A stretch of 33,085 bases of DNA, taken from IMG/VR virus record IMGVR_UViG_3300020044_009089, positions 1-33,085 of that record. The stretch is one strand, 5' to 3'. The position numbers were made by a program, and so were the translations under genes. The notes under the pieces are model-generated. The model searched no databases. It had not been told where the DNA came from and was given only the letters and a program-made list of their open reading frames with translations. Below are positions 935-33,085 of this stretch, in pieces. Position 1 is the stretch's first letter. The number at the start of each line of letters is the position of its first letter. This DNA comes from a virus. Lineage: Duplodnaviria > Caudoviricetes.

Positions 935-1167
935 GGTGTGATGGCTTGCGCCAGCTCGGCTAGCTTGTCGGCAAGGCGGTAGATGCCGTCGCGGGTGTTG
1001 AATGTCCACGCCTCCGTTGTTAGCGTGTAGGTGGTGTCGTTGCCTACCGTGTGCGCGGTCAGTTGCATGCGTTGGTTTTGCTCCCACGGCATAGGGTCGG
1101 GCTGCTCGATTGTGCAGGTGGCAAGCTGCTCGACGACCTGCGGGGTGGTGGTTTCGGTTGTGTCCAT
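931..1167 (-). CDS. Hypothetical protein (78 aa, MDTTETTT...)
   Basis: ATG at 1167, four nt after promoter-like TATTTTTA and just after a terminator. Confidence 0.7.
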   Translation of the reverse strand: MDTTETTTPQVVEQLATCTIEQPDPMPWEQNQRMQLTAHTVGNDTTYTLTTEAWTFNTRDGIYRLADKLAELAQAITP

Positions 1168-2638: not shown

Positions 2639-3859
2639 TTAGTAGATTTCCATGACAAGTACCAGCCCGTCGCCACCGTTGCCACCTGCGCCACTTGCGG
2701 TGCCGTTGACCGATGCGCGCCCGCCGCCACCACCTGCGCCGTAGTTGCCGCCGTTACCCGCCGCCGTGGTGGGCGGGAAGCCGCCTGCGCCGCCTGTGCC
2801 GAGGCCCTTGCCGGAAGTGAGGCTTGAGCTGAAAAGTAGGAAGTTGGACTGGTTGGCTAGTCCGTTGGGTGATGCGCCGGATGTTGGGCCTGCAATTAGC
2901 ACACCGTTAGCGTATATACCTCCACCATTACCTCCAGCCGTTGAGTTGGTATTACCGCTGTTGATGCCGCCACCGCCACCGCCGCCAGTAGTTGATATAC
3001 CACCGCCGAAACCTTGAGAACCTCCCGTGCCATTACCACTCTGACCATTACCACCACTGCCACCACTCATGGCATAAGGCCCGCCAATAGGTGTTGATAG
3101 TAGGCTTGAACCACCAGCACCAGTTGCACTTGTTGTACCAGTACCACCACCACCACCAGTACCACCCTTCGCAATAACAAGCGAACCGAAGCTCGTGTCT
3201 GCCGCGGTGCTGCCGTTGGTGCCGTTGGTGTCGTCAGCCGCTGCACCCGCGCCGCCCGTGGCGCCGGTTGCTACCGTCACCGTGACCGCGCTAGTCAAGT
3301 CGTCGGCAGCCACCTGCCGCCACACCACCGCACCACCACCGCCACCGCCACCGCCGAAGCGGTTAGATGCCGCCGCACCACGTCGACCGCTGCCACCACC
3401 ACCACCAGCACCCACCGCTGCAATGAGCACGCGCTTGAGGCCGTTGGGCTTAGTCCAGGTTGATGTGCCCGCGGTATACTCTTGGATGACCACCACCGGT
3501 GCACCGGCACCGCTGAGCACCTGCCAGCCGATGTCCCGCGACCACTCGAGGGTTTCACCGGGTTGCAGCTCCACGCTTACCAGCTTGTACTGCTCGGTCA
3601 CGTCGTCGGTGAATAGCGTCACGGTGTGCTTGCTCGTGTCGGCGTTGCACACGTTGAGGTGTGCCACCTGCAAAGCGCTGCCGCTGATACCGGTCAGCAC
3701 AATAGTCGGGCCGACGTCGAGCAGGGCTTGCGTGGTGCTTTGGGGCAACACCATGCCGCTGCTGTTTATTTCGTTGTAGCTTACCACGATGACCGGCTGG
3801 CTGGTCGAATAGGGTGCAGCCAGGCTGGCTTGTAGTGTAAATTGGTCTTGTATGTACAT
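2639..3859 (-). CDS. Glycine-rich tail fibre/virion protein (406 aa)
   Basis: Gly-rich domain pattern YTAGTSTWTKP..VGAGGGGGSG...GGDGLVLVMEIY. Confidence 0.75.
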   Translation of the reverse strand: MYIQDQFTLQASLAAPYSTSQPVIVVSYNEINSSGMVLPQSTTQALLDVGPTIVLTGISGSALQVAHLNVCNADTSKHTVTLFTDDVTEQYKLVSVELQPGETLEWSRDIGWQVLSGAGAPVVVIQEYTAGTSTWTKPNGLKRVLIAAVGAGGGGGSGRRGAAASNRFGGGGGGGGAVVWRQVAADDLTSAVTVTVATGATGGAGAAADDTNGTNGSTAADTSFGSLVIAKGGTGGGGGTGTTSATGAGGSSLLSTPIGGPYAMSGGSGGNGQSGNGTGGSQGFGGGISTTGGGGGGGINSGNTNSTAGGNGGGIYANGVLIAGPTSGASPNGLANQSNFLLFSSSLTSGKGLGTGGAGGFPPTTAAGNGGNYGAGGGGGRASVNGTASGAGGNGGDGLVLVMEIY

Positions 3860-3860
3860 G

Positions 3861-5066
3861 TCAGAAGGTTGCGGTGATGGCGAACACCTGCGCGGTGGTC
3901 GGCCCGGTTGGTGCAGGGCTTGCAGGCTCCCATAGGCTACTCGTGCCGTTGTAGGTTAGCACGTCGCCGGAGCTCGGTGCGGTGTCGGCCACGTCGTGCA
4001 GCTCGGCTAGCTCGTAGCCGTTTTGGATGGCGTAAAGCACCCGCCCGTTGTTGTTTTGCTTGCGCGTAATTATGCCGATGAACACGGTGTTGTTCGGCGA
4101 TGCCGGTGGAGTAGTGGTCACCTGCCCCGGTATGGTGCTGAGCCATAAGCGGTCACCCACGTCGAAGCCGCTGGTGTCGAGGTTGTGCACCTGGCCGGAT
4201 GTCACCACGAAGCCGGTGTCATTATTGTCGATGTCCTCGTACACGCCGCCAATTGTTTTGCTGCTGCCGCTTTCGGTCACGGCGTCGGCTAGCTCGATTT
4301 CTGGGAAGTTGCCCGAGGCGCTGCTTGTCTTGAGGTACACAATAGTCCCCTTGGGTACCGTTGCCCCGGTCTTGTTAATGACCTCGATTTGCTCGCGCTC
4401 GCTGGCGTCCACGATGCCGTTGTCGTTGGTGTCGTACACGCTTTTCAGCATGTCACCAATGACCGCCGGCTTGCCGGTTACGTCCGTCCACGCTACCTCG
4501 TAGGCTACGCGGGCGCTGTTGACCGTGCCGTCGTCGAGGCTGTCGTACACGCTTTTGAACATGTCACCCGCAGCGGGAAGGGTCACCCACACCACACCAG
4601 CCGCCGCGTTGGGGTCGGCAGCTAGCACCTGCGAAGGATCGCCGGCCACGGTAGGTACGAACTCGCCCAGCTGGTCGTCGTAGGCTAGCAGCTGCCCCTT
4701 AGTGGTGCCGTCGCCGAACCACTCGCGCACCTGCTGCTCGGTTATAATTGTGGGCTGATTGGTGACGTCGGCCCAGTCGACCTCGTAGGCCACGCGGGCG
4801 CTGTTCACTGTTCCGTTGTCTAGGCTGTCGTACACGCTCTTGAGCATGTCGCCGCTAGCCTGCCCCGGTGCGAACTTTTGAGCAGTCACCGCCCAGAGGG
4901 TGTTGAAGTCGTCGGCGCCGTTACCGAACACAAAACCGGACGGCGATATGCCGGCACCTCCGGCGTGCACTAGCCCGACCTCGCCGTGCAGCAGGGTGGG
5001 GTTGGCGGTTTGCCATTGCGCCAGTGTGCCCCGGCGCACTTTCATGCGTATAGTCGCGGTTAACAT
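3861..5066 (-). CDS. Tail fibre protein with Mtd_N-like N-terminus and three GDMxKSVYD repeats
   Basis: N-terminal RRGTLAQWQTANPTLLHGEVG..FGNG; internal repeats; C-terminal LAELHDV..GDVLTYNG...W fibre motif. Confidence 0.75.
   Translation of the reverse strand: MLTATIRMKVRRGTLAQWQTANPTLLHGEVGLVHAGGAGISPSGFVFGNGADDFNTLWAVTAQKFAPGQASGDMLKSVYDSLDNGTVNSARVAYEVDWADVTNQPTIITEQQVREWFGDGTTKGQLLAYDDQLGEFVPTVAGDPSQVLAADPNAAAGVVWVTLPAAGDMFKSVYDSLDDGTVNSARVAYEVAWTDVTGKPAVIGDMLKSVYDTNDNGIVDASEREQIEVINKTGATVPKGTIVYLKTSSASGNFPEIELADAVTESGSSKTIGGVYEDIDNNDTGFVVTSGQVHNLDTSGFDVGDRLWLSTIPGQVTTTPPASPNNTVFIGIITRKQNNNGRVLYAIQNGYELAELHDVADTAPSSGDVLTYNGTSSLWEPASPAPTGPTTAQVFAITATF
4495..4853. repeat. Imperfect ~74-bp intragenic direct repeat (about 4495-4568 and 4780-4853); a shorter third copy lies near 4413-4457
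   Basis: Encodes GDM(L/F)KSVYDSLD(N/D)GTVNSARVAYEV twice, with mostly synonymous differences. Confidence 0.85.
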
Positions 5067-24934: not shown

Positions 24935-25678
24935 TTAGACCACATTTATTTGAGCGGCAGGGTCGGGCTGACCGCCACCTCCCGGCTGGATGCCGGGCGC
25001 ACTCCCTTGTGCTACTGCCGCATATTTACGTTCCTGCAAAGTTATTTTTTTTCCCTTGTACATGCCAGCATCGTGCTCATCAATTTTACAATAGGGTATG
25101 ATAGGTACATTTAATTTACATGATTTGTCAATCAAATAAACATATTTTAATTGCTTTCCTGCAAATGGTTTCCATTTCTTAAACTGACTGCTCAATTTTA
25201 GGTGGTGCGCTTGTATAACATGCATTGCTGCACCAGTTTTTGGATTAATTCTTAAAGCTGTATTATCCACAATGCTAACCAAAAAAAAACCGCTTGCCCT
25301 ATAAATAGTCCCGTCACCACATTGTGTGCCGTCTGCAAAGCTTACCACCCATTTTATATGAGGGGCATTTTTTTTGATTAATTTTAAGGTTATTGCTATC
25401 ACACGACTTTCTGAATTTTTTGGCAAATAATTATCAAAAGCCATGCGATTTAATTCTATAAATTCATTCCAACGGGTGCCTTCAATTAAATTGATAGTCC
25501 CCTTTTTGTTTATGCTTGGCCCATAACTTAAAACACCGTGTAACCTATTGTCCAAAAAAGCACCAAAGTGTAAAACTGAGTTTGGCACTACTTTACCGCT
25601 GTAATGATGTTTTTTTACAAATTCATTTGCCAGCTTTGCCGGTATGACCTTTACGAGTATTTCTTTTGCTCTGCCCAT
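24935..25678 (-). CDS. Mom-family (GNAT-fold) DNA adenine modification enzyme
   Basis: FVKKHHYSG, IELNRM, NSESRVI and VVSFADGTQCGDGTIYRASGF motifs; in a ParB-modifier-terminase context. Confidence 0.8.
   Translation of the reverse strand: MGRAKEILVKVIPAKLANEFVKKHHYSGKVVPNSVLHFGAFLDNRLHGVLSYGPSINKKGTINLIEGTRWNEFIELNRMAFDNYLPKNSESRVIAITLKLIKKNAPHIKWVVSFADGTQCGDGTIYRASGFFLVSIVDNTALRINPKTGAAMHVIQAHHLKLSSQFKKWKPFAGKQLKYVYLIDKSCKLNVPIIPYCKIDEHDAGMYKGKKITLQERKYAAVAQGSAPGIQPGGGGQPDPAAQINVV
24953..25021 (-). tRNA. Degenerate tRNA-Gly(TCC)-like element inside the 3' end of the Mom-like gene
   Basis: GCGGCAG/CTGCCGC acceptor with U73; GCAC/GTGC D stem; CCCGG-CATCCAG-CCGGG anticodon arm; aberrant T arm GGCGG-TCAGC-CCGACC. 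Confidence 0.65.
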
Positions 25679-26268
25679 TGCATTATGATTAAATATAGTG
25701 CATTTCCATTGCTGTTTTCATTGCCCATGGTTTCAGCATATTTGTATTCCTCACTTTTCTTAATTTCAGCAAGTGCATTTTTTATAGTTGTGGCCTGCTC
25801 TGTGGCAAGGGTGAAAGTCATTTGCTCAAAGGGCGGTTTTTCACCTTCCGGCAGTAAAAAACCGTCTGATAAATTATTTGCATCAATTTCTATACCGGGC
25901 AAGTCAAGTCCCCACTCGGTCAGCTCAGCTGCGTCCCACTGGTTTGCCAGCACCTCCCAGTCCCACTCGCCGAAGCCCACGTTGTCTTTGATTATGAAGG
26001 CACGCTGCTGCTGCTCGGTTAGGTCTTTGGCGTACACCACCGGCACCTTGTCAAGGCCGGCGGCTTTGCAGGCTTGCAGGCGCATGTTGCCACCCAGCAC
26101 GGTGCCCTCGCTCGTTGCCACAATGGGTCGCAGCTCCAGCATCCATGGGTCGGCTTTGATTGAGGCCACCAGCTGCTTGAATTTTGCGTCTTTGATAAAG
26201 CGCGGGTTGGTGGGGTTTGGGTGCAGTTCGGTAATGGGCACCCACGTTGGGGTCGGTGGTGTTGTCAT
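25651..26268 (-). CDS. ParB/Sulfiredoxin N-terminal domain protein (partner of phage DNA modification enzymes)
   Basis: LHPNPTNPR, LRPIV, VLGGNMRLQAC and FIIKDNVGFGEWD motifs. Confidence 0.85.
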   Translation of the reverse strand: MTTPPTPTWVPITELHPNPTNPRFIKDAKFKQLVASIKADPWMLELRPIVATSEGTVLGGNMRLQACKAAGLDKVPVVYAKDLTEQQQRAFIIKDNVGFGEWDWEVLANQWDAAELTEWGLDLPGIEIDANNLSDGFLLPEGEKPPFEQMTFTLATEQATTIKNALAEIKKSEEYKYAETMGNENSNGNALYLIIMQWAEQKKYS

Positions 26269-26271
26269 GCG

Positions 26272-26682
26272 TTAAAAAATGGGGTAAGCTTTGGGCGTGC
26301 AGCTTGCAAGGCTGAGCAGCAGCAGCAAGCACGTCACGGTTATGATGTCAAGGCCATGGCATGCGGCCATGAGCTTGCGCTTAATTGTGAAAAGTTGGCC
26401 GGCAGGTGTGCTTTTGCCTTTGCCGAGCAGGTATGGGTTTTTGAAATCTTGCACCTCAGTGCGGCCGTCGGCGTAGGTCACTACAAAATCGGCGCGGTAT
26501 GTGGTTATGAGGTGGCCGTCCACCTCAAGGCGGTAATTTACCTGCCGGTCAATGTGCACCACGCGCTCGCGGTCGGTGGCTTGCCGCAGCAGGTTGAGCT
26601 TGACCCAATGGCGGTACTCGCCCATGCTGTCGAAGCTGCCCTCAGCGGTGCGCACCTTGGTGCTGTTGTACTTGGTCGGCAT
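26272..26682 (-). CDS. DUF1064-family PD-(D/E)xK nuclease-like protein
   Basis: KYNSTK...FDS..E, RQVNYRL, YRADFVV, VQDFK and IKRKLM motifs. Confidence 0.8.
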   Translation of the reverse strand: MPTKYNSTKVRTAEGSFDSMGEYRHWVKLNLLRQATDRERVVHIDRQVNYRLEVDGHLITTYRADFVVTYADGRTEVQDFKNPYLLGKGKSTPAGQLFTIKRKLMAACHGLDIITVTCLLLLLSLASCTPKAYPIF

Positions 26683-26686
26683 GCGT

Positions 26687-26694
26687 CAAAAATA
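26687..26694 (-). promoter_or_regulatory. TAnnTTTG -7 promoter element for the DUF1064-ParB-Mom-terminase operon
   Basis: TATTTTTG four nt before the ATG at 26682. Confidence 0.65.
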
Positions 26695-26698
26695 ATGT

Positions 26699-26727
26699 AA
26701 AAGGGCGACACGTGGCCGCCCTTTTTT
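26699..26727. terminator. Bidirectional intrinsic terminator ending the early/replication operon
   Basis: AAAAGGGCGAC-acgtg-GCCGCCCTTTTTT hairpin with A and T runs on both sides. Confidence 0.75.
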
Positions 26728-26728
26728 G

Positions 26729-27199
26729 CTAGGGCTTGCGGTGTGCGTACACCTCGGCCCATAAGCGGGCAAGGTGCTCGGTCACGTTTACGGTGTAGTG
26801 TTGCAGCCACTCCCGGGTGATGAACACCTGGGCGGCTAGGCCGGTGCGGTTGCTCTTTGCCGGTTGGGCCTCGGCAAGCACGTCACGGATGCGGGGGAGG
26901 TAGATATAGCCGGCGTCGGGCTCCACGATTGCCAGGCGGCTGAAGTGCGGCAGGCCCTCGGTGAGTAGGTACCGATTGAGGTGGTACCCGCCATGGCTGA
27001 GGTGCAGGGGTGCGTTGGCGTCGCGCTCGATAAAGATGGCGTTTTCTGAATAGCTTGCCCGTCCGAGCTTGCTGCGGTAGCGGTGCCCGGCGGGTGTGAT
27101 GAAAACGTCGTAGCCCATGTACGGCTGCCCGGTGGGCGTGGGCACGGCGTCGGTAAAGATGACCGCACCGTCGGGGTCATTGGCTCGGGGTATTTTCAT
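26729..27199 (-). CDS. Hypothetical protein (156 aa)
   Basis: Coupled ORF with protein-like composition. Confidence 0.65.
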   Translation of the reverse strand: MKIPRANDPDGAVIFTDAVPTPTGQPYMGYDVFITPAGHRYRSKLGRASYSENAIFIERDANAPLHLSHGGYHLNRYLLTEGLPHFSRLAIVEPDAGYIYLPRIRDVLAEAQPAKSNRTGLAAQVFITREWLQHYTVNVTEHLARLWAEVYAHRKP

Positions 27200-27458
27200 G
27201 CGGCGGGCTGATTAGGGTGTCGATGGTCCGGAGCTGGTCGCTGAGGTCGTGCAGGTGGCGCGTCAAAAAGGCTAGCAGGTCGCGGCGTCGCCAGTTCTTG
27301 CTGTGCGTGTTGGTGTGTTCTACAAAGGTCAGCAGCTGCCGGTTTTCAACTTGCCATGCGTCGAGGCGGGTGAGGGCGTCAAGGTAGGCGTCAAAAAGTT
27401 CGTCGCGGGTGAGTAGCAGGCGCAGCTTGCCCTCCGGGGTGAGGTTGGTGGTGCTCAT
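27177..27458 (-). CDS. Hypothetical protein (93 aa)
   Basis: ATGA-coupled ORF. Confidence 0.65.
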   Translation of the reverse strand: MSTTNLTPEGKLRLLLTRDELFDAYLDALTRLDAWQVENRQLLTFVEHTNTHSKNWRRRDLLAFLTRHLHDLSDQLRTIDTLISPPHENTPSQ

Positions 27459-27985
27459 AGCTCGCGGGTGATTTTGTAGCCCTTTGCCTTGAGGTGGTCG
27501 ATGGCCTGGGTGAGCGTAAAAAGTTGGCCACCGGGGTCGGTGCCCTCCAGGAGGCTGAGCTGCACCACGGCGGGGCGTGCGCTTTCGGTTGCCGCCTTGG
27601 CCGCGTCGAGCAGGGTGCTGCGCAGTTGGCTGCCGGGCTTGGCTTTGGTTCCCCGGCGGCGCTTAAGTGTAGGGTCTTTTTTTAACTTTTCGCGCTCGGC
27701 TTTACATTTAGCCCGGTACTTGTCAATAAGCGGGTTTGGTTTGAACCTGCCGGTGGCGCCCTTTTCGGTGGCTTGGTAGATGTATTCTTTGCCGTTTTTG
27801 GTACGCGTCACCAGCTTGCCGGTTTCTAGTAGATCAACTAGCCGCTGGTTGCCAATTTTGGCCTTTTTTTCCAGCTCATGTAAGCGCTTGAGCGGTTGGG
27901 GTTGCTTTGCCAGCATGCGCAGGGCTTGGTAGATTGCTTTGATGTACTTGTCGCGGTTTTCGGTTTTGTTTTCGTTTTTTTTCAT
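27455..27985 (-). CDS. Basic winged-helix DNA-binding protein (176 aa)
   Basis: LHELEKKAKIGNQRLVDLLETGKLVTRTKNGKEYIYQATEKG wHTH pattern. Confidence 0.6.
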   Translation of the reverse strand: MKKNENKTENRDKYIKAIYQALRMLAKQPQPLKRLHELEKKAKIGNQRLVDLLETGKLVTRTKNGKEYIYQATEKGATGRFKPNPLIDKYRAKCKAEREKLKKDPTLKRRRGTKAKPGSQLRSTLLDAAKAATESARPAVVQLSLLEGTDPGGQLFTLTQAIDHLKAKGYKITREL

Positions 27986-28224
27986 GGTGTTGGTGGTGTG
28001 TGTGTGGGTTGGTTGTTGTCGATTAGCTTTTCAATGGTCGGCCACGCCGCCTCGATGGCATGCCGGAGGTCGCCGTAGGCCTTCTCCCAGTCCGCTAGGG
28101 TCACCGGGTCGACGGCACTGCGCCGGGTTTCGGTTTGGCGCAGGGTGAGCAGGTCGGCGGCGGCGCTTATGATCTCGAGGAGGTCGACCACCTGCTCGGG
28201 GTATAGGGTTTTGGGCGTGCTCAT
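27982..28224 (-). CDS. Hypothetical protein (80 aa)
   Basis: ATG ORF coupled to the next gene. Confidence 0.65.
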   Translation of the reverse strand: MSTPKTLYPEQVVDLLEIISAAADLLTLRQTETRRSAVDPVTLADWEKAYGDLRHAIEAAWPTIEKLIDNNQPTHTPPTP

Positions 28225-28234
28225 GTGCCGGGGC

Positions 28235-28429
28235 TTACTTGTCGCCGAGGGTTTTGGGGCCTCCCGGCTTGATCCGGGGCCGCTTCGGCGCGGTTTTGGG
28301 CTTGGGTGGGTCAGTGTAGCCCTCGCCGGGCTTTTGTGCGTCCTTGGCCTTGCAAATGGCCCACGCTTGGCTTTCGGTGTAGCCCTTGTCGATTAGTGCC
28401 TGCACGCAGGCTTCAAGCTGTTGTGGCAT
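28235..28429 (-). CDS. Small protein with a CV...KGY...AWAIC helical motif and basic tail (64 aa)
   Basis: MPQQLEACVQALIDKGYTESQAWAICKAK, a motif recurrent in small phage proteins. Confidence 0.6.
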   Translation of the reverse strand: MPQQLEACVQALIDKGYTESQAWAICKAKDAQKPGEGYTDPPKPKTAPKRPRIKPGGPKTLGDK

Positions 28430-28697
28430 GGTGGTCGGGTTTTTGGGTGATTAGGTCGGTGAGGGTGTTGGTGGTGTAGGTGCTGGCGCCGTTGATCAGG
28501 TCGTCGAGCAGGTCAATGCGCACCAGCAGGGTGCGGGCTAGTTGCTGCCGGGTGTCGCCTCGCATCCGGCGCGGGTCGGCCAGCAGCCGGTTGAGGGTCG
28601 GGCGGGTGATGTCGAGCGCTTGCGCTAGGGCCAGCTTGGTCATGCCTCGGGCACGGATGAGGCGCTCGAGCGTGTAGGTCATTTGCTTGGGGGTCAT
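28413..28697 (-). CDS. XRE/Cro-like HTH transcriptional regulator
   Basis: LIRARGMTKLALAQALDITRPTLNRLL. Confidence 0.8.
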   Translation of the reverse strand: MTPKQMTYTLERLIRARGMTKLALAQALDITRPTLNRLLADPRRMRGDTRQQLARTLLVRIDLLDDLINGASTYTTNTLTDLITQKPDHHATTA

Positions 28698-29275
28698 GGT
28701 GTGGGGGTGTTGATGTTTTGGCTGATTAGGTCACCGGCAGCCCACGCGTCGCCCTCCTGCCGGTTGCGGCGGTGCTTTTCGCCTTGGGTGGCCAGCAGGT
28801 GTTGGTTTTCGCGGTGCTGCACGATGCCCTCGGTGCGCTCGTCGAAGTAGGCGTTGAGCCACTCCACCAGCGTGTCGTATCCGAAGCCGCCGTACAGCTT
28901 GCCGAAGGCTTGGCGCTTGAAGGCCAGCTCCAAAAAGGTTTTGAGCTCGGGCAGGGTCAGGTTGCGCACCTCGGGCAGGTCGGCGAAGGCCTTGCCCATT
29001 GCGATGCACGCCTCGGCGGCCACTGCCCGGCTGGCCGGTAGCATCGACACGTAGGTGGCGATGGCCTCGGTGACGGTCAAGGTGACCAGCTGCTGGGCGT
29101 TGCTTGGGTCGGCGCGGTATAGGGCACCGATACACGGCTCGCCGCTTTGGATGGCTGCCACGGCTGCGCTGGTGGCGGTGCGGTGGCTAGGCGTTGCCTG
29201 CCAAGCTCTCGCGAATAGTTGCGGCGAGGTGAGCTGCTGAGCCAGTGCCGCCGGTAGTTGGTTTGGGTTTTCCAT
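28694..29275 (-). CDS. Replication-associated protein downstream of the initiator (helicase-loader-like, DUF6633-like)
   Basis: LTLPELKTFL...FGKLYG..GYDTLVEWLNAYFDER motif; position after the initiator. Confidence 0.55.
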   Translation of the reverse strand: MENPNQLPAALAQQLTSPQLFARAWQATPSHRTATSAAVAAIQSGEPCIGALYRADPSNAQQLVTLTVTEAIATYVSMLPASRAVAAEACIAMGKAFADLPEVRNLTLPELKTFLELAFKRQAFGKLYGGFGYDTLVEWLNAYFDERTEGIVQHRENQHLLATQGEKHRRNRQEGDAWAAGDLISQNINTPTP

Positions 29276-30065
29276 AGTTGGTGCGTAGGGTTTCAATCAT
29301 GTTTGGCAGCTGGCTGTTGATTTGCCGGAGCTGAACCTGCCCGCGCTGCCAGTCGGTCAGCAGGTGCCAGTTGTCGAGCATGAACTGCCAAAGCTCCAGC
29401 GCGGTTTTGCTGCCGGCCTTGACGGTGTCGACCTGCTCGAAGTAGGTCACGATGGCCTTGAGGGCTGCGCCGTCGGCGTCGGTGATCCGGGTGGGCAGGC
29501 TGCGATCGGCAAGGAAGTCGGCGTAGGCCTTCATAAAGTCGGCGAAGGGGCCGGCTGGTTTTTTTTTGGCCGGTGCTTTGTCCTTTTCCTTGTCTTTGTC
29601 CTTATCCTTATCCTTATCCTTATCCTTAGCCCCTAGCTTGGGGCTAGCTTGACCCTTGCTAGGGTCAACGTAGGGGCTAGCTAGGGGCTTGATAGGGTCT
29701 AGCTTGGGGCTTTCGCTTTGTGGCTCGTTTTCAGTCAGTTGGTATTTTTCCATATTTTCAATTACGGCGCGGTGCACCCGGTTGGCCGGGTTGAGCTCGC
29801 CGTACTGAAACGCGACGAAGTCGGGCAGCCACCACTTGGTGCCGCCGTCGAAGGGCACCGCAAAGCCCTCAAGCTGGGCCAGCAGCTCGGCCTCACCGGG
29901 CAGCTCCATGCCGATGCGCAGGGCTGCCACGTCAAGCTCCACGCGCCACGTGCCGGTGTGATCGGCCTCACAAATTAAATACACGTAGAACAGTTTGAGG
30001 TGGGGCGGCAGCCGCTTCATGCGTGCCGTTTTGAACAGATTGGTGTCGATAAAGCGCTTGGCCAT
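29187..30065 (-). CDS. Phage replication initiator (lambda O/DnaD-like architecture)
   Basis: MAKRFIDT...KLFYVYLICEADHTG N-domain; iteron-bearing linker; (DK)n run; C-terminal helical domain. Confidence 0.75.
   Translation of the reverse strand: MAKRFIDTNLFKTARMKRLPPHLKLFYVYLICEADHTGTWRVELDVAALRIGMELPGEAELLAQLEGFAVPFDGGTKWWLPDFVAFQYGELNPANRVHRAVIENMEKYQLTENEPQSESPKLDPIKPLASPYVDPSKGQASPKLGAKDKDKDKDKDKDKEKDKAPAKKKPAGPFADFMKAYADFLADRSLPTRITDADGAALKAIVTYFEQVDTVKAGSKTALELWQFMLDNWHLLTDWQRGQVQLRQINSQLPNMIETLRTNYGKPKPTTGGTGSAAHLAATIRESLAGNA
29624..29711. repeat. Eight tandem 11-bp iteron-like units (consensus AGCCCCWAGCT): probable replication origin
   Basis: Minus strand: agccccaagct agaccctatca agcccctagct agcccctacgt tgaccctagca agggtcaagct agccccaagct aggggctaagg, then GATAAG repeats. 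Confidence 0.7.
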
Positions 30066-30068
30066 GGC

Positions 30069-30566
30069 TCAGCCTTTTGGGTAGATTATGGCGTAGGAGC
30101 TGGTCGAGGTGCGGCGCGGCGGCTGCAGCGTCACCACCTCACCGGTCACCGGGTCGACCACCGTGGTGGGCGCTTTGATGGCCTTGAGCAGCTCCTGCCG
30201 GAGCTTGATCGCCTCGTTGACCTCGTACTGCTGCACCAGGAGCTCGTCGAGCTCGGGGTCGGCGCAGGCTGAGAAGTCGTACCGTATGCCGGTTTCGCGG
30301 GGTTGCAGCTCGATGGCGCCCACCTTGATGCGCTCGCCCTTGGCGTACTTGCCAAGCTCAGCCAGCACCAGCTCGTCGATGTCGTCGATGGCGGCCTTGA
30401 GCACCTTGGCCATAGTGTCGAGCGCCACGGCGGCCTCCTTGGCGTCGATCTCGCCACGGTGCACCGCTTGGGTCAGCTCGGTGGCGGCGGTTTGGATGTC
30501 GGCCTTGCTGGCCAGTGTGGGCACCCACTTGAGCAGGGCGCCGGTGCTTTGGTTTTGGTTTTCCAT
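30069..30566 (-). CDS. Conserved-type phage protein in the recombination module (165 aa)
   Basis: ETGIRYDFSAC.DP...VDPVTGEV...PP pattern; lies between ERF and the initiator. Confidence 0.7.
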   Translation of the reverse strand: MENQNQSTGALLKWVPTLASKADIQTAATELTQAVHRGEIDAKEAAVALDTMAKVLKAAIDDIDELVLAELGKYAKGERIKVGAIELQPRETGIRYDFSACADPELDELLVQQYEVNEAIKLRQELLKAIKAPTTVVDPVTGEVVTLQPPRRTSTSSYAIIYPKG

Positions 30567-30571
30567 TGTGT

Positions 30572-30850
30572 TTACGTGTGTAGGTTGGTTTCGATGTACT
30601 TAATGACCTCGGCGTCGATTTCGGCGCGGTAGGGTGCCAGCTCGGCGGTGCAAATATATTGCCCGCTTAATGTTTCGGCGCTTTCGATGGCATAGCACCA
30701 GCTCAGCACGGTGTCGCAGGTCGGCATGCCGGTGGGTGGTGCCCAGTCAGCCGAGCGGGTCACGTCCCACGTGAGGTTGGCCCTCACCCACACCGCGCCG
30801 GTGGCGGTGTGGATGACTAGGCTGATCGCTTCAGAAGGGCGCGTTGTCAT
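30572..30850 (-). CDS. Hypothetical protein (start uncertain, 30850 or 30883)
   Basis: Fills the gap between ERF and the next gene. Confidence 0.55.
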   Translation of the reverse strand: MTTRPSEAISLVIHTATGAVWVRANLTWDVTRSADWAPPTGMPTCDTVLSWCYAIESAETLSGQYICTAELAPYRAEIDAEVIKYIETNLHT

Positions 30851-31589
30851 AATGGTCGGCGGCTTGGCGGTTTTGCTGGTCAATGTGCTCCATGTGTGCG
30901 CTGTCGACCAGTGCCTGCCGCTCGTTGAGGGTGGCGAGGTCGGTTTTGTTGACGCGGTACTTGCGCAGGATGTCGGCCACCTTGCCGCCGCCCTCGATGT
31001 ACTCGAGCGCCTTGGCGCCCTCGGGTGTCGTGCCGCCGTTTTTGGCCGTCAGGTTGAGCCACGGCAGGCCTGCCTTGCTTTCGGTTGCCGGGTTGGGGCG
31101 CACGGGTGCCGGTGCGCTGGCGCTGGGTTGGTATGTCATGTGATCGGAACCGGTTGCGTCGCTGTCCTCGTCGGATGGCAGGGCAAGGATGGCAGCAGCG
31201 GCGTACCTGCGCAGGTAGCTCAGCCCGCCGCCCATTTTCATGAGGTTGTTGACTTGGCCGCCCTCCCATGCCACGTAGTGCAGTTTGGAGGCGATAAATT
31301 GACCGGAGCGGTGCACGATCCGGGTGACCACGCTGTCACCGGCAAGGTGCTGCTCCATGAAGCAGCCGCAGGCGGCCAATGCCGGGCGCACGGCGGTCAG
31401 GATGTCGTCGAGCAGCATGTACTTGCGCTTGACCTGGGCGGTGATGCTAGCGGTGCCGTTTTTAGGCACTGCGATGCCGGAGCCGTGGAACTGCACTAGC
31501 GCGGCGTTGATCTGGTCGGTGTCGGCGCTTGTCCAAAAGCTGTCGGTATGCCATGTGATGGCGGGGGTGGGGGTGGGGTTGGTTTCCAT
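30831..31589 (-). CDS. ERF-family single-strand annealing protein
   Basis: KYMLLDDILTAVRPAL, TRIVHRSGQFI and GGGLSYLRRYAAAAILALPSDEDSDA motifs. Confidence 0.88.
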   Translation of the reverse strand: METNPTPTPAITWHTDSFWTSADTDQINAALVQFHGSGIAVPKNGTASITAQVKRKYMLLDDILTAVRPALAACGCFMEQHLAGDSVVTRIVHRSGQFIASKLHYVAWEGGQVNNLMKMGGGLSYLRRYAAAAILALPSDEDSDATGSDHMTYQPSASAPAPVRPNPATESKAGLPWLNLTAKNGGTTPEGAKALEYIEGGGKVADILRKYRVNKTDLATLNERQALVDSAHMEHIDQQNRQAADHYDNAPF

Positions 31590-31651
31590 GTATGTGTTGG
31601 GGTTGGTTTTTTTTAAGGTAGCGCGTTGGCCGGTCGCGCCCCCGGTGTTGG

Positions 31652-31849
31652 TTACTTGTTAAGGCCTTGACGGCGTGCAGCAGCGCACCCGTCATGGTAG
31701 CTGTTGTGGTATGCCATGAAGGCGGCGCCGAAGGTGCTGCTCATGGTGCTGTACGGATTTGCGTAGGTACCGGTGAGGCCGTCGTTAAAGCCTTGAGTGC
31801 GGATTGCGGCATACTTGCCGCGCTTGGTGGGGGTGTGTGTCGTTTCCAT
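31652..31849 (-). CDS. Small protein with an RMF-like motif (65 aa)
   Basis: Start METTHTP at 31849; GFNDGLTG..ANPY......AYHNSYHDG. Confidence 0.6.
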   Translation of the reverse strand: METTHTPTKRGKYAAIRTQGFNDGLTGTYANPYSTMSSTFGAAFMAYHNSYHDGCAAARRQGLNK

Positions 31850-31936
31850 GGGTGCTAAAATATAAAAAAAGTACACGCCGTCTGTTTTTTTTACGCTTGA
31901 CGCGCTAACTCGCTGTTTTTCAATTCAATTATTTTT
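31850..31936 (-). promoter_or_regulatory. Second early promoter, a diverged ungapped copy of the 203-289 module
   Basis: TATTTTAG five nt before the ATG; shared blocks at a constant offset of 31647. Confidence 0.7.
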
Positions 31937-32345
31937 ACTCGGCATGCAAAAAAGGCCCGACCGGGCGCACCTTGAGGCTGCCGGGGGTGCGCTCCAGCTC
32001 GTACAGCCCGTCGCCCTCCTGGGCACAAAGCCAAAGCACTGCGCCGGCTACATTTAGCGGCTCGCGCCCGTCCATGTGCACCGCCACCGTGTCGGGGTCG
32101 GCAAGTATGGCCTCGATTACACGCAAGCGGGGCAGCAGTGCAGGCGCCGGCTCGGGGTCGATGTAAAGCGCCACGTGATCGCGCCGCCAGTCGACACAAA
32201 AGCCAAGGCGCTCCAGCCGGGTCAGGTCGAGCAGCACGCTGGCGATGCTTGCGCCGGTGGCATGGGCAAGGTGTTGCAGCGCTTGGGGTGTTGCCTTGAG
32301 GCTGCGCACGATGCCGCGCAGGCGTTGCAGGTCGGTGATGGCCAT
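31935..32345 (-). CDS. Winged HTH domain protein (136 aa, MAITDLQ...)
   Basis: LQHLAHATGASIASVLLDLTRLERLGF; TACCTTGG seven nt upstream. Confidence 0.65.
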   Translation of the reverse strand: MAITDLQRLRGIVRSLKATPQALQHLAHATGASIASVLLDLTRLERLGFCVDWRRDHVALYIDPEPAPALLPRLRVIEAILADPDTVAVHMDGREPLNVAGAVLWLCAQEGDGLYELERTPGSLKVRPVGPFLHAE

Positions 32346-32403
32346 GGTGGCACCAAGGTAGCGCAAAAAGGCCGCCAGCTGGCACCGTTGCAGCTTTGTG
32401 CGC

Positions 32404-32434
32404 TTGCAGGTGTGGCCGACCTTGACTACTTTTG
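32404..32434 (+). promoter_or_regulatory. Plus-strand Bacteroidota consensus promoter TTG-N20-TACTTTTG
   Basis: TTG at 32404-32406 and TACTTTTG at 32427-32434, in an intergenic region. Confidence 0.65.
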
Positions 32435-32438
32435 TCGC

Positions 32439-32503
32439 TGGTTTTGGTATCCATTGTGTTCTTTGACGAAAAAGGGCGGCCAGTTGGTCGCCCTTTTCGT
32501 TTT
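32439..32503 (+). ncRNA. Candidate ~65-nt antisense sRNA
   Basis: Lies between a consensus promoter and a terminator; its 5' 22 nt are complementary to start regions of early genes. Confidence 0.55.
32466..32503. terminator. Bidirectional intrinsic terminator
   Basis: ACGAAAAAGGGCGGCC-agtt-GGTCGCCCTTTTCGTTTT. Confidence 0.8.
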
Positions 32504-32516
32504 CAGCCTTGCCAGC

Positions 32517-32732
32517 TCAGCTTTGGCTGGTCATTGCGTGCAGGTGCATGGCGTCACGTACACGGTCATACACGCATGCCAGCTCGTCCATGGTCAGCCG
32601 GGGGCCGATTAGCATAGGGTTGCCCACCCGGATACAATCGGGCAGGCGGGTGGCTTGGTAGCTTAGCTCGTACACCTCGCCATAAAGGTGCACGGTGGTC
32701 TTTTGGGTGGTGGTGTTGGGGGTGGTTTCCAT
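32517..32732 (-). CDS. Hypothetical early protein (71 aa, METTPNTT...)
   Basis: ATG ORF with an A/C-rich leader; followed by a terminator. Confidence 0.7.
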   Translation of the reverse strand: METTPNTTTQKTTVHLYGEVYELSYQATRLPDCIRVGNPMLIGPRLTMDELACVYDRVRDAMHLHAMTSQS

Positions 32733-32779
32733 TGTGTAGGAGTGTTGGGGTTGGTTTTGGTGTTGGTGTTGGTGTTGGT

Positions 32780-33085
32780 TTATAGTTCTAGGGCGTCGTT
32801 TGCTACATGCAACCGGGTGATGCGCACGCCCTCGTGGTAATGGGTGAAGGCTTCCAGGCTTTCGTTTGGGTTACGGGCAAGTATGCGCCACTCCACCTGC
32901 TCATGCTCGTCGAGCGGGCCGGTGAGGTTGCCGATATAGATGCAAAAGCTGTACGCCTTGCCCTCGAGGTATCCGATGCCGAAGTCGGTGTCGAAGTTGG
33001 CCGGCTCGTAGTAGGTTTCTGACCACTCGTAGGCCACGTCGGCACCCGGCTCGAGGTTGATGTAGTTGGCTTGGTCGAACCAATA
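32780..33085 (-). CDS. Hypothetical early protein, 3' part (starts at 202 across the junction)
   Basis: The frame is open through the terminal repeat. Confidence 0.8.
   Translation of the reverse strand, partial: YWFDQANYINLEPGADVAYEWSETYYEPANFDTDFGIGYLEGKAYSFCIYIGNLTGPLDEHEQVEWRILARNPNESLEAFTHYHEGVRITRLHVANDALEL
32965..33085. repeat. 121-bp exact direct repeat, right copy
   Basis: Identical to bases 1-121. Confidence 0.97.

Follow-up and report, generated by a model that had tools for sequence, protein, structure and literature searches.

A candidate trans-acting antisense RNA opposite the early genes of a probable Bacteroidota phage

All recognised genes of the window, the whole 33,085-nt stretch of viral DNA analysed here, lie on the minus strand. 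Opposite to all of them runs a plus-strand unit of ~65 nt that consists of a promoter, a 22-nt G/U-rich stretch and a hairpin terminator. Does this unit encode an RNA, and if so, what does the RNA act on? The original prediction was a small RNA (sRNA) that pairs in trans with the start codons of several early genes; every string that it quoted was found in place.

The virus record ends in a 121-nt terminal repeat, indicating a unit genome of 32,964 bp, and the phage is a circular siphophage of this size. CheckV estimates the completeness of the record at 65%; the genomes of relatives measure 33.4 and 35.0 kb. Encoded are a terminase, portal, Clp-type protease, capsid, tape measure and endolysin, as well as an ERF protein (start 31589; assigned by Pfam PF04404 and PHROGs), a Holliday-junction resolvase and, within the early run, a Cro/C1-type HTH protein (28413-28697). 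A ParB-like match is located in the packaging-modification cluster. Note that an island of low GC content (24935-25900; 0.39 vs 0.60), missing from the alignment with the related record G001, comprises a Mom-like gene for DNA modification together with the 3' portion of the ParB-like gene. A PHROGs scan of 30 + 39 = 69 ORFs found no integrase, in agreement with the original prediction, and no antirepressor was found among the 69 ORFs scanned.

Five exact TAnnTTTG boxes stand 4-8 nt ahead of an ATG on the minus strand of the window (215, 2292, 12775, 23293 and 26694), and near-consensus boxes also precede starts 1167, 31849 and 32345. A box of this type is described as the -7 element of Bacteroidota promoters (PMC7366714, PMC6847099), so the host is, judged by these elements, very likely a member of the Bacteroidota. 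With boxes only 4-8 nt from the ATG, many phage mRNAs would be leaderless or nearly leaderless; such mRNAs are reported as rare in the cited accounts of Bacteroides and Flavobacterium (PMC7366714, PMC6847099). The low-GC relatives show the same proximity of box and ATG. The sole named relative of the 165-aa gene discussed below is found in Bacteroides phage BF1-TP2 (gp4), directly after ERF. Related contigs occurred in four sequencing runs, of which three carry the label freshwater metagenome and one just metagenome. No RNA data set was listed among the matching runs, a result without weight for or against expression. A pattern scan of GTDB genomes found no relative of the 165-aa protein or of the winged-helix protein encoded next to the unit, and no host genome was therefore identified. 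The first gene after each strong early promoter differs between the window and L001, the version of the region from G001: window slots 31652-31890 and 1-260 hold genes with METTH- and METQ- starts, and L001 slots 3000-3440 and 4660-4960 hold unrelated 63-aa and 85-aa genes. The slot behind each strong early promoter is, by this sequence comparison, cassette-like and variable.

The promoter of the unit (32404-32434; TTG-N20-TACTTTTG) is by its sequence of the Bacteroidota sigma-ABfr type. Its -33 element, TTG at 32404-32406 on the plus strand, lies 20 nt upstream of the -7 box in all three aligned versions of the locus, and the box itself (TACTTTTG, conforming to TAHHTTTG; 32427-32434, plus strand) differs among relatives at the free position alone. 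Sixteen exact TAnnTTTG boxes occur in the window (5 plus, 11 minus), and the box at 32427 alone has a TTG 19-21 nt upstream. Relaxing the pattern yielded 24 plus-strand boxes, of which 4 are followed by a hairpin and U-run; the -33 element is present solely at 32427. A sigma-70 promoter scan missed the site, as expected for a promoter of the Bacteroidota type. The described spacing, with a G at -5 (PMC6847099), places the predicted RNA start at 32439-32440, the first letters of a 5' seed (32439-32460, plus strand). This seed is predicted to be unstructured, with an opening cost of 1.4 kcal/mol, and contains two kept blocks, GGTTTTGG (32440-47) and CCATT (32451-55). The candidate RNA folds into a free 5' end and one hairpin (z -4.5, 0 of 200 shuffles).

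The hairpin belongs to an intrinsic terminator (32466-32504, plus strand; hairpin letters 32466-32500, U-run to 32503) that is usable in both directions and better on the plus strand. Its folding energies on the plus and minus strands were -23.2 vs -18.9, -24.2 vs -19.2 and -24.3 vs -18.2 kcal/mol in the three versions, an advantage of 4.3-6.1 kcal/mol for the plus strand in each of the window, L001 and L169, because a G-U pair there corresponds to A-C on the minus strand. Another terminator of this sequence family, located where the early region ends (26699-26725, minus strand), served as orientation control and is more stable on its transcribed minus strand (-16.8 vs -12.4). An Rfam search (cmscan, 26000-33085, E<=5) returned six matches, all far below the gathering score, and no c4 match; over the unit itself only STnc320 (E 0.47), toga_FSE and MicX were matched, driven by the hairpin. 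Judged by these sequence elements, an RNA of ~65 nt is likely transcribed from the unit's host-type promoter.

We compared the unit with L001 (~88% DNA identity to the window) and with L169, which comes from a metagenome contig in which the region is present in two strain versions and which may be a chimeric assembly. The ends of this contig (L169/L170) hold winged-helix regions with 93% and 79% protein identity to the window, and the contig is probably chimeric or strain-mixed. In the three-way alignment, 8 of 20 spacer positions vary but 0 of 9 promoter consensus positions. No change is seen in GGTTTTGG, CCATT or the stem of the terminator, and the three letters between the seed blocks, the linker and the loop are all variable. 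Seed columns that pair with the start at 30566 vary in 3 of 21 cases and unpaired columns in 10 of 11 (Fisher p 4e-5), in a post hoc test on three related sequences that is sensitive to gap placement in L169. In three Logan contigs (X1, X2 and X3), spacer, linker, loop and the free position of the box are altered, as is the middle of the seed in X1 and X3; among the 40 of 61 differences listed for these contigs, none falls in GGTTTTGG or the promoter boxes. The gap between the seed blocks is 3 nt in the three versions and 4 nt in X1 and X3, as at the 30566 site.

The minus-strand frame from ATG 32454, which the original prediction had named as a possible gene start, measures 187 aa in the window, 9 aa in L001 and 113 aa in L169, and a conserved gene start was not upheld. 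The sense frame from the UUG in the seed has 57, 50 and 4 aa in the three versions. Neither strand keeps a reading frame. The alignments support selection on a plus-strand transcription unit.

How widespread is the unit? The exact 22-mer seed had no match in viral_contigs. A relaxed pattern of promoter and seed matched 89 loci, with TTG at N20 and a terminator only in the relative's own contig. A scan for promoter plus terminator over 79 loci (1.0 Mb) found seven units, and strong antisense to starts was confined to those in the window, L001 and L169. The covariance model R1, run over 91 sources (1.19 Mb), gave full-length matches to its three training copies only. The terminator family is represented at no fewer than 121 loci; 19 of 123 matches have an upstream box, and these were read by eye as gene-end terminators of low-GC phages. 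Relatives by capsid, at 73-82% identity, are of low GC content (0.33-0.47), and among them only G002 has the full early region. This syntenic relative contains neither the winged-helix gene nor the sRNA unit. By these searches, the unit is narrow in range and found only in the window's high-GC clade. G002 does carry, at 2813-2880 of L308 on the plus strand and opposite to the genes, a TATTTTTG box followed by ~25 G/U-rich letters and a strong terminator. This arrangement is without a -33 element, and its best trans pairing to starts reaches just -17 kcal/mol; it could be an unrelated analogous unit or a chance product of the A-rich leader that belongs to the adjacent gene.

To identify candidate targets, we scored pairing with RNAduplex plus opening energies against 42 curated starts in the window, with 1000 shuffles for each of three nulls (mononucleotide, dinucleotide and CCAT-fixed). 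The main predicted target is the start region (-6 to +16) of a 165-aa gene at 30550-30572 on the minus strand. The predicted match of 21 of 22 nt was confirmed, with a 1-nt bulge, and the duplex energy of -29.9 kcal/mol (-26.4 kcal/mol with accessibility) was unmatched by the best of 42 starts in all three nulls (0/1000 in each). This is the best non-self duplex genome-wide on both strands, the next reaching -24.7 kcal/mol. The site lies 1.9 kb from the unit, and the duplex is imperfect, with a central internal loop.

The further starts proposed as targets fared unequally. At the start of the 71-aa gene (32717-32737, minus strand; -23.0 kcal/mol), the match of 14 of 15 nt at 32723-37 and the string at 32752-61 in the leader were both present, and per-site counts of 0, 6 and 2/1000 (mononucleotide, dinucleotide, CCAT-fixed) make 32732 a fair candidate for the second target. 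The ERF start (31574-31598, minus strand; -20.5 kcal/mol) pairs as described at 31579-98, with a 3-nt bulge and one mismatch, and is a weak predicted target (4, 39 and 21/1000). Similarly weak is a site absent from the original prediction, the early coding part of the MDTT- gene with start 1167 (1149-1165, minus strand; -20.7 kcal/mol; 6, 41 and 39/1000). Start 7784 reached -18.4 kcal/mol, with pairing largely upstream of the AUG. The claimed target at ATG 29275 (29259-29275, minus strand; -17.9 kcal/mol) was not above chance, since its counts of 11, 123 and 105/1000 do not beat the dinucleotide and CCAT-fixed nulls. Adding opening energies left the top five starts unchanged (30566, 32732, 1167, ERF and 7784).

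In G001, the ortholog of 30566 is the best of 48 starts (-23.6 kcal/mol; 2/400 per site, 13/400 for the best of all) and that of 32732 the second, and the top seven starts are all of early genes. Genome-wide, the duplex with the 30566 ortholog ranks third, after two in-gene sites. The compensatory changes between RNA and target that the original prediction had looked to were not found among L001, X1, X2 and X3, which are few and close strains. The leader side of the 30566 site is altered in X1, X2, X3, X5 and L001 with no matching change in the RNA; the coding side is the same in L001, X1, X3 and X5, and in X2 an A next to the AUG is missing. Divergence here is low (17 changed places in 191 nt), and at this level an unchanged 30550-30566 carries no statistical significance. 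When three RNA versions were scored against eleven targets, no preference for cognate combinations emerged.

Pairing between the seed and early starts may in part reflect the likeness of these starts to one another. Early starts have an A/C content of 0.76, compared to 0.67 for late ones. The antisense of start 31849 binds start 202 with 0.71 of its self energy, and the corresponding value for the seed on 30566 is 0.75. Early starts form a look-alike family, and a shared start origin can make much of the 30566 match. The seed itself probably arose from an early-gene start. Such an origin accounts for the source of the seed, not for the selective retention of its two blocks. The original prediction had further linked the RNA to the MET- and MEN- N-termini of the early proteins; this link was not borne out, since relatives that lack the unit commonly have such starts too. 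In a set of 150 distant 30566-family members, MEN (10) and MET (7) are the top tripeptides; G002, with its full syntenic early region and no unit, has MEKL, MEKP, METE and MENK starts, and G003 has two MENT starts.

The 165-aa gene (30069-30566, minus strand) belongs to an unnamed phage family of 1509 clusters that travels with ERF. No name was obtained for the protein from PHROGs, Pfam, PDB sequence or BFVD fold. Its structure model is confident, with the first 12 residues disordered, and conserved motifs of the family are G.KYDYS.C.D and TGE. We regard this unnamed family of the recombination module as worthwhile to pursue. The stop codon of the gene lies 3 nt ahead of the next ATG (30065), which opens a putative replication initiator gene (29187-30065, minus strand). 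This gene had no PHROG or Pfam match; its position, internal repeats (29628-29689) and widespread N-terminal family make a replication initiator the probable assignment. Direct and inverted GGGGCTAGC(T) repeats at 29628-29700, before a DKDK-coding run and in altered form in L001, are likely to mark the replication origin. An exact TATATTTG box on the minus strand (30651-30658), inside a 92-aa gene and 92 nt upstream of ATG 30566, is retained in L001 as TATATTTG and could serve the 165-aa and initiator genes as an internal promoter. The stop codon of the upstream gene abuts the 30566 site, so terminating ribosomes might displace the RNA. On the other side of the unit, the 71-aa gene (32517-32732) converges on the unit's terminator.

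Back-to-back with the unit lies a gene for a 136-aa winged-helix protein (31935-32345, minus strand), a candidate regulator transcribed away from the sRNA promoter, its start 94 nt from the predicted RNA start. The statement that the phage has neither an integrase nor a divergent CI gene was correct for the integrase and incomplete for CI, in that this winged-helix gene diverges from the promoter. The N-terminus of the protein is HTH_11-like in the ESM Atlas (0.90), and Pfam winged-helix matches are weak and below cut-off; the AlphaFold model (pLDDT 80) has three helices plus a hairpin. Just four homologous clusters were found. A WYL-like C-terminal domain was considered and found to be unsupported by Pfam, PDB sequence and BFVD (best E 0.023). 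A near-consensus -7 box, TACCTTGG (32353-32360, minus strand), is invariant in the three versions and is predicted to give a nearly leaderless winged-helix mRNA. Between the two promoters, a block of 31 nt (32383-32413) is invariant in all three versions and contains a direct repeat of TTGCAG (32388-93 and 32404-09), the second copy overlapping the -33 element; this block is a possible operator. G002 is without both the winged-helix gene and the RNA unit, and the two therefore look like one module, a hint that comes from one counter-example only. The winged-helix protein is a likely candidate for the controller of the sRNA promoter.

Together, we favor the reading, at a probability of roughly 60%, that the unit encodes a trans-acting antisense sRNA that damps early translation, chiefly via the 30566 start. 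Host polymerase would make the ~65-nt RNA from infection onward, and its free 5' end would pair in trans across the AUG of 30566, blocking ribosome loading. Weaker pairing would trim the 32732, 1167 and ERF starts. Synthesis of the initiator, whose ATG lies 3 nt past the target's stop, may be lowered by coupling or polarity. As the RNA accumulates, it would act as a brake on the recombination-replication cistrons, either as an early shut-off or as a carrier-state or superinfection brake, with the winged-helix protein controlling the promoter. The lack of an integrase argues for a lytic timer or a carrier state. A precedent for this type of pairing is GibS, whose unstructured 5' seed represses Bacteroides mRNAs without a Shine-Dalgarno (SD) sequence by pairing at the start codon (PMC7366714).

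Several other readings of the locus were weighed against the antisense brake. The winged-helix protein and the antisense RNA might, from their back-to-back promoters, form a dormancy or immunity switch that replaces a CI repressor, with the RNA silencing a class of early genes via their shared AUGGA...CCAAAACC start signature; we hold this to be doubtful. Unlikely is a relic reading, in which the seed remains from the duplication of an early-gene start, the RNA pairs with nothing of consequence, and opposing transcription, insulating the winged-helix gene from read-through, is all that the promoter provides. The look-alike family of early starts (repeats D2, D10 and D12), the absence of compensatory change and a terminator that works in both directions all fit such a relic. 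However, a neutral remnant should not keep two blocks in three versions and X1-X3 while neighbouring letters change, and the first kept block coincides with the predicted start site. Rather unlikely, too, is a real sRNA whose selected targets are host mRNAs, such that host genes are shut off and matches within the phage arise incidentally. The seed complements a generic, strong start of the Bacteroidota type (AUGGAAA..., A/C-rich), and this motif is widespread, given that ME- is the commonest start among the distant 30566-family members (40 of 150); missing co-variation with phage targets also fits targets outside the phage. Against this, a phage would not be expected to keep the strongest match on its own replication operon, and a generic motif would not require nearly so close a match as the 21/22 of the window.

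The remaining readings do without a trans-acting RNA. That a protein, such as the adjacent winged-helix protein, recognises the kept blocks as DNA sites a short way downstream of the promoter is very improbable: the motif does recur at early starts, with CCAAAACC on the mRNA strand in eight cases and on the other in none, but a block spacing of 3 or 4 nt is better tolerated by an RNA duplex than by a protein site, and no promoter adjoins 30566. We see equally little chance that the RNA is the cis-antisense partner of the convergent 71-aa gene, in the manner of a type I toxin-antitoxin pair acting via the shared terminator. The transcripts would overlap by ~35-40 nt at the hairpin and the gene order is retained in 3/3 versions, yet stable hairpins tie up the overlap on either strand, the 71-aa protein is no hydrophobic peptide and has no family match, and the kept 5' blocks are left unexplained. 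Hardly credible is a minus-strand gene or leader peptide that starts at ATG 32454 and shares the early motif. Although its frame is open for 187 aa in the window and 113 aa in L169, in L001 it closes at 9 aa, and a single inserted nucleotide shifts it in X1 and X3. The frame also runs out of phase across the conserved winged-helix gene and has no family match, and the 16 nt that follow the terminator contain no promoter.

How does the unit compare with known antisense regulators? CopA of plasmid R1, a cis-encoded RNA fully complementary to its target, blocks an upstream reading frame that is translationally coupled to the replication initiator; in the phage analysed here, coupling is suggested by the 3-nt gap alone. 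The sar RNA of phage P22 likewise overlaps its target, and the c4 RNA of P1 and P7 is processed from a precursor. The likeness to c4 lies in a phage RNA that pairs in trans around the ribosome-binding region and blocks translation (PMC12197685). However, c4 acts on an antirepressor mRNA with seeds in the loops of a folded RNA, whereas here the seed is a free 5' end and the best target is an ERF-linked cistron in the recombination-replication region. The sar and OOP (lambda) RNAs, of 68/69 and 77 nt, are described as transcribed from their own promoters opposite early genes; sar blocks translation initiation, and OOP is cis-encoded (PMC12197685). In contrast, the RNA proposed here would originate 1.9 kb away from the target it matches best, with imperfect pairing, and the unit is intergenic, overlaps only the shared terminator and is without the full complementarity of cis-encoded OOP and sar.

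P4 CI RNA, to which the unit had been likened from the outset, resembles it in keeping down the element's own replication genes (PMC4825925). The comparison is loose in other respects: P4 CI is processed from the longer transcript that it controls and causes premature termination at seqA/seqC (PMC4825925), whereas the unit is read from a promoter of its own on the opposite strand and its RNA would cover start codons. An Rfam match, seeds in loops and an antirepressor or own-leader target, the marks of the c4 and P4 CI family, were all absent from the unit. The likeness to GibS of Bacteroides thetaiotaomicron is broader, comprising a phylum-type promoter, a long single-stranded 5' seed and, independently of SD and Hfq, pairing with several mRNAs across their start codons (PMC7366714). 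By sequence, the unit shares with a GibS-like RNA its own promoter and terminator, a conserved seed over a start codon and the lack of a coding function; Rfam revealed no sequence likeness to GibS, and the few, close strains showed none of the compensatory changes expected of such an RNA. Furthermore, GibS is chromosomal and metabolic, whereas the unit is phage-borne and appears aimed at the phage's own genes.

Phage antisense regulators have been described mainly from enterobacterial phages, according to the cited account (PMC12197685). We found no antisense sRNA of a Bacteroidota phage in the open-access literature, where supplements could hold similar RNAs. If the proposed mechanism is true, the unit would be a compact case of a phage RNA repressing its own early genes in trans at their start codons, in a phylum that has neither SD sequences nor Hfq, and a candidate control element for phages without integrase and CI. 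As read from its sequence, the unit would work like c4 and sar and serve an end like that of P4 CI while belonging to none of these, and in build it is closest to GibS.
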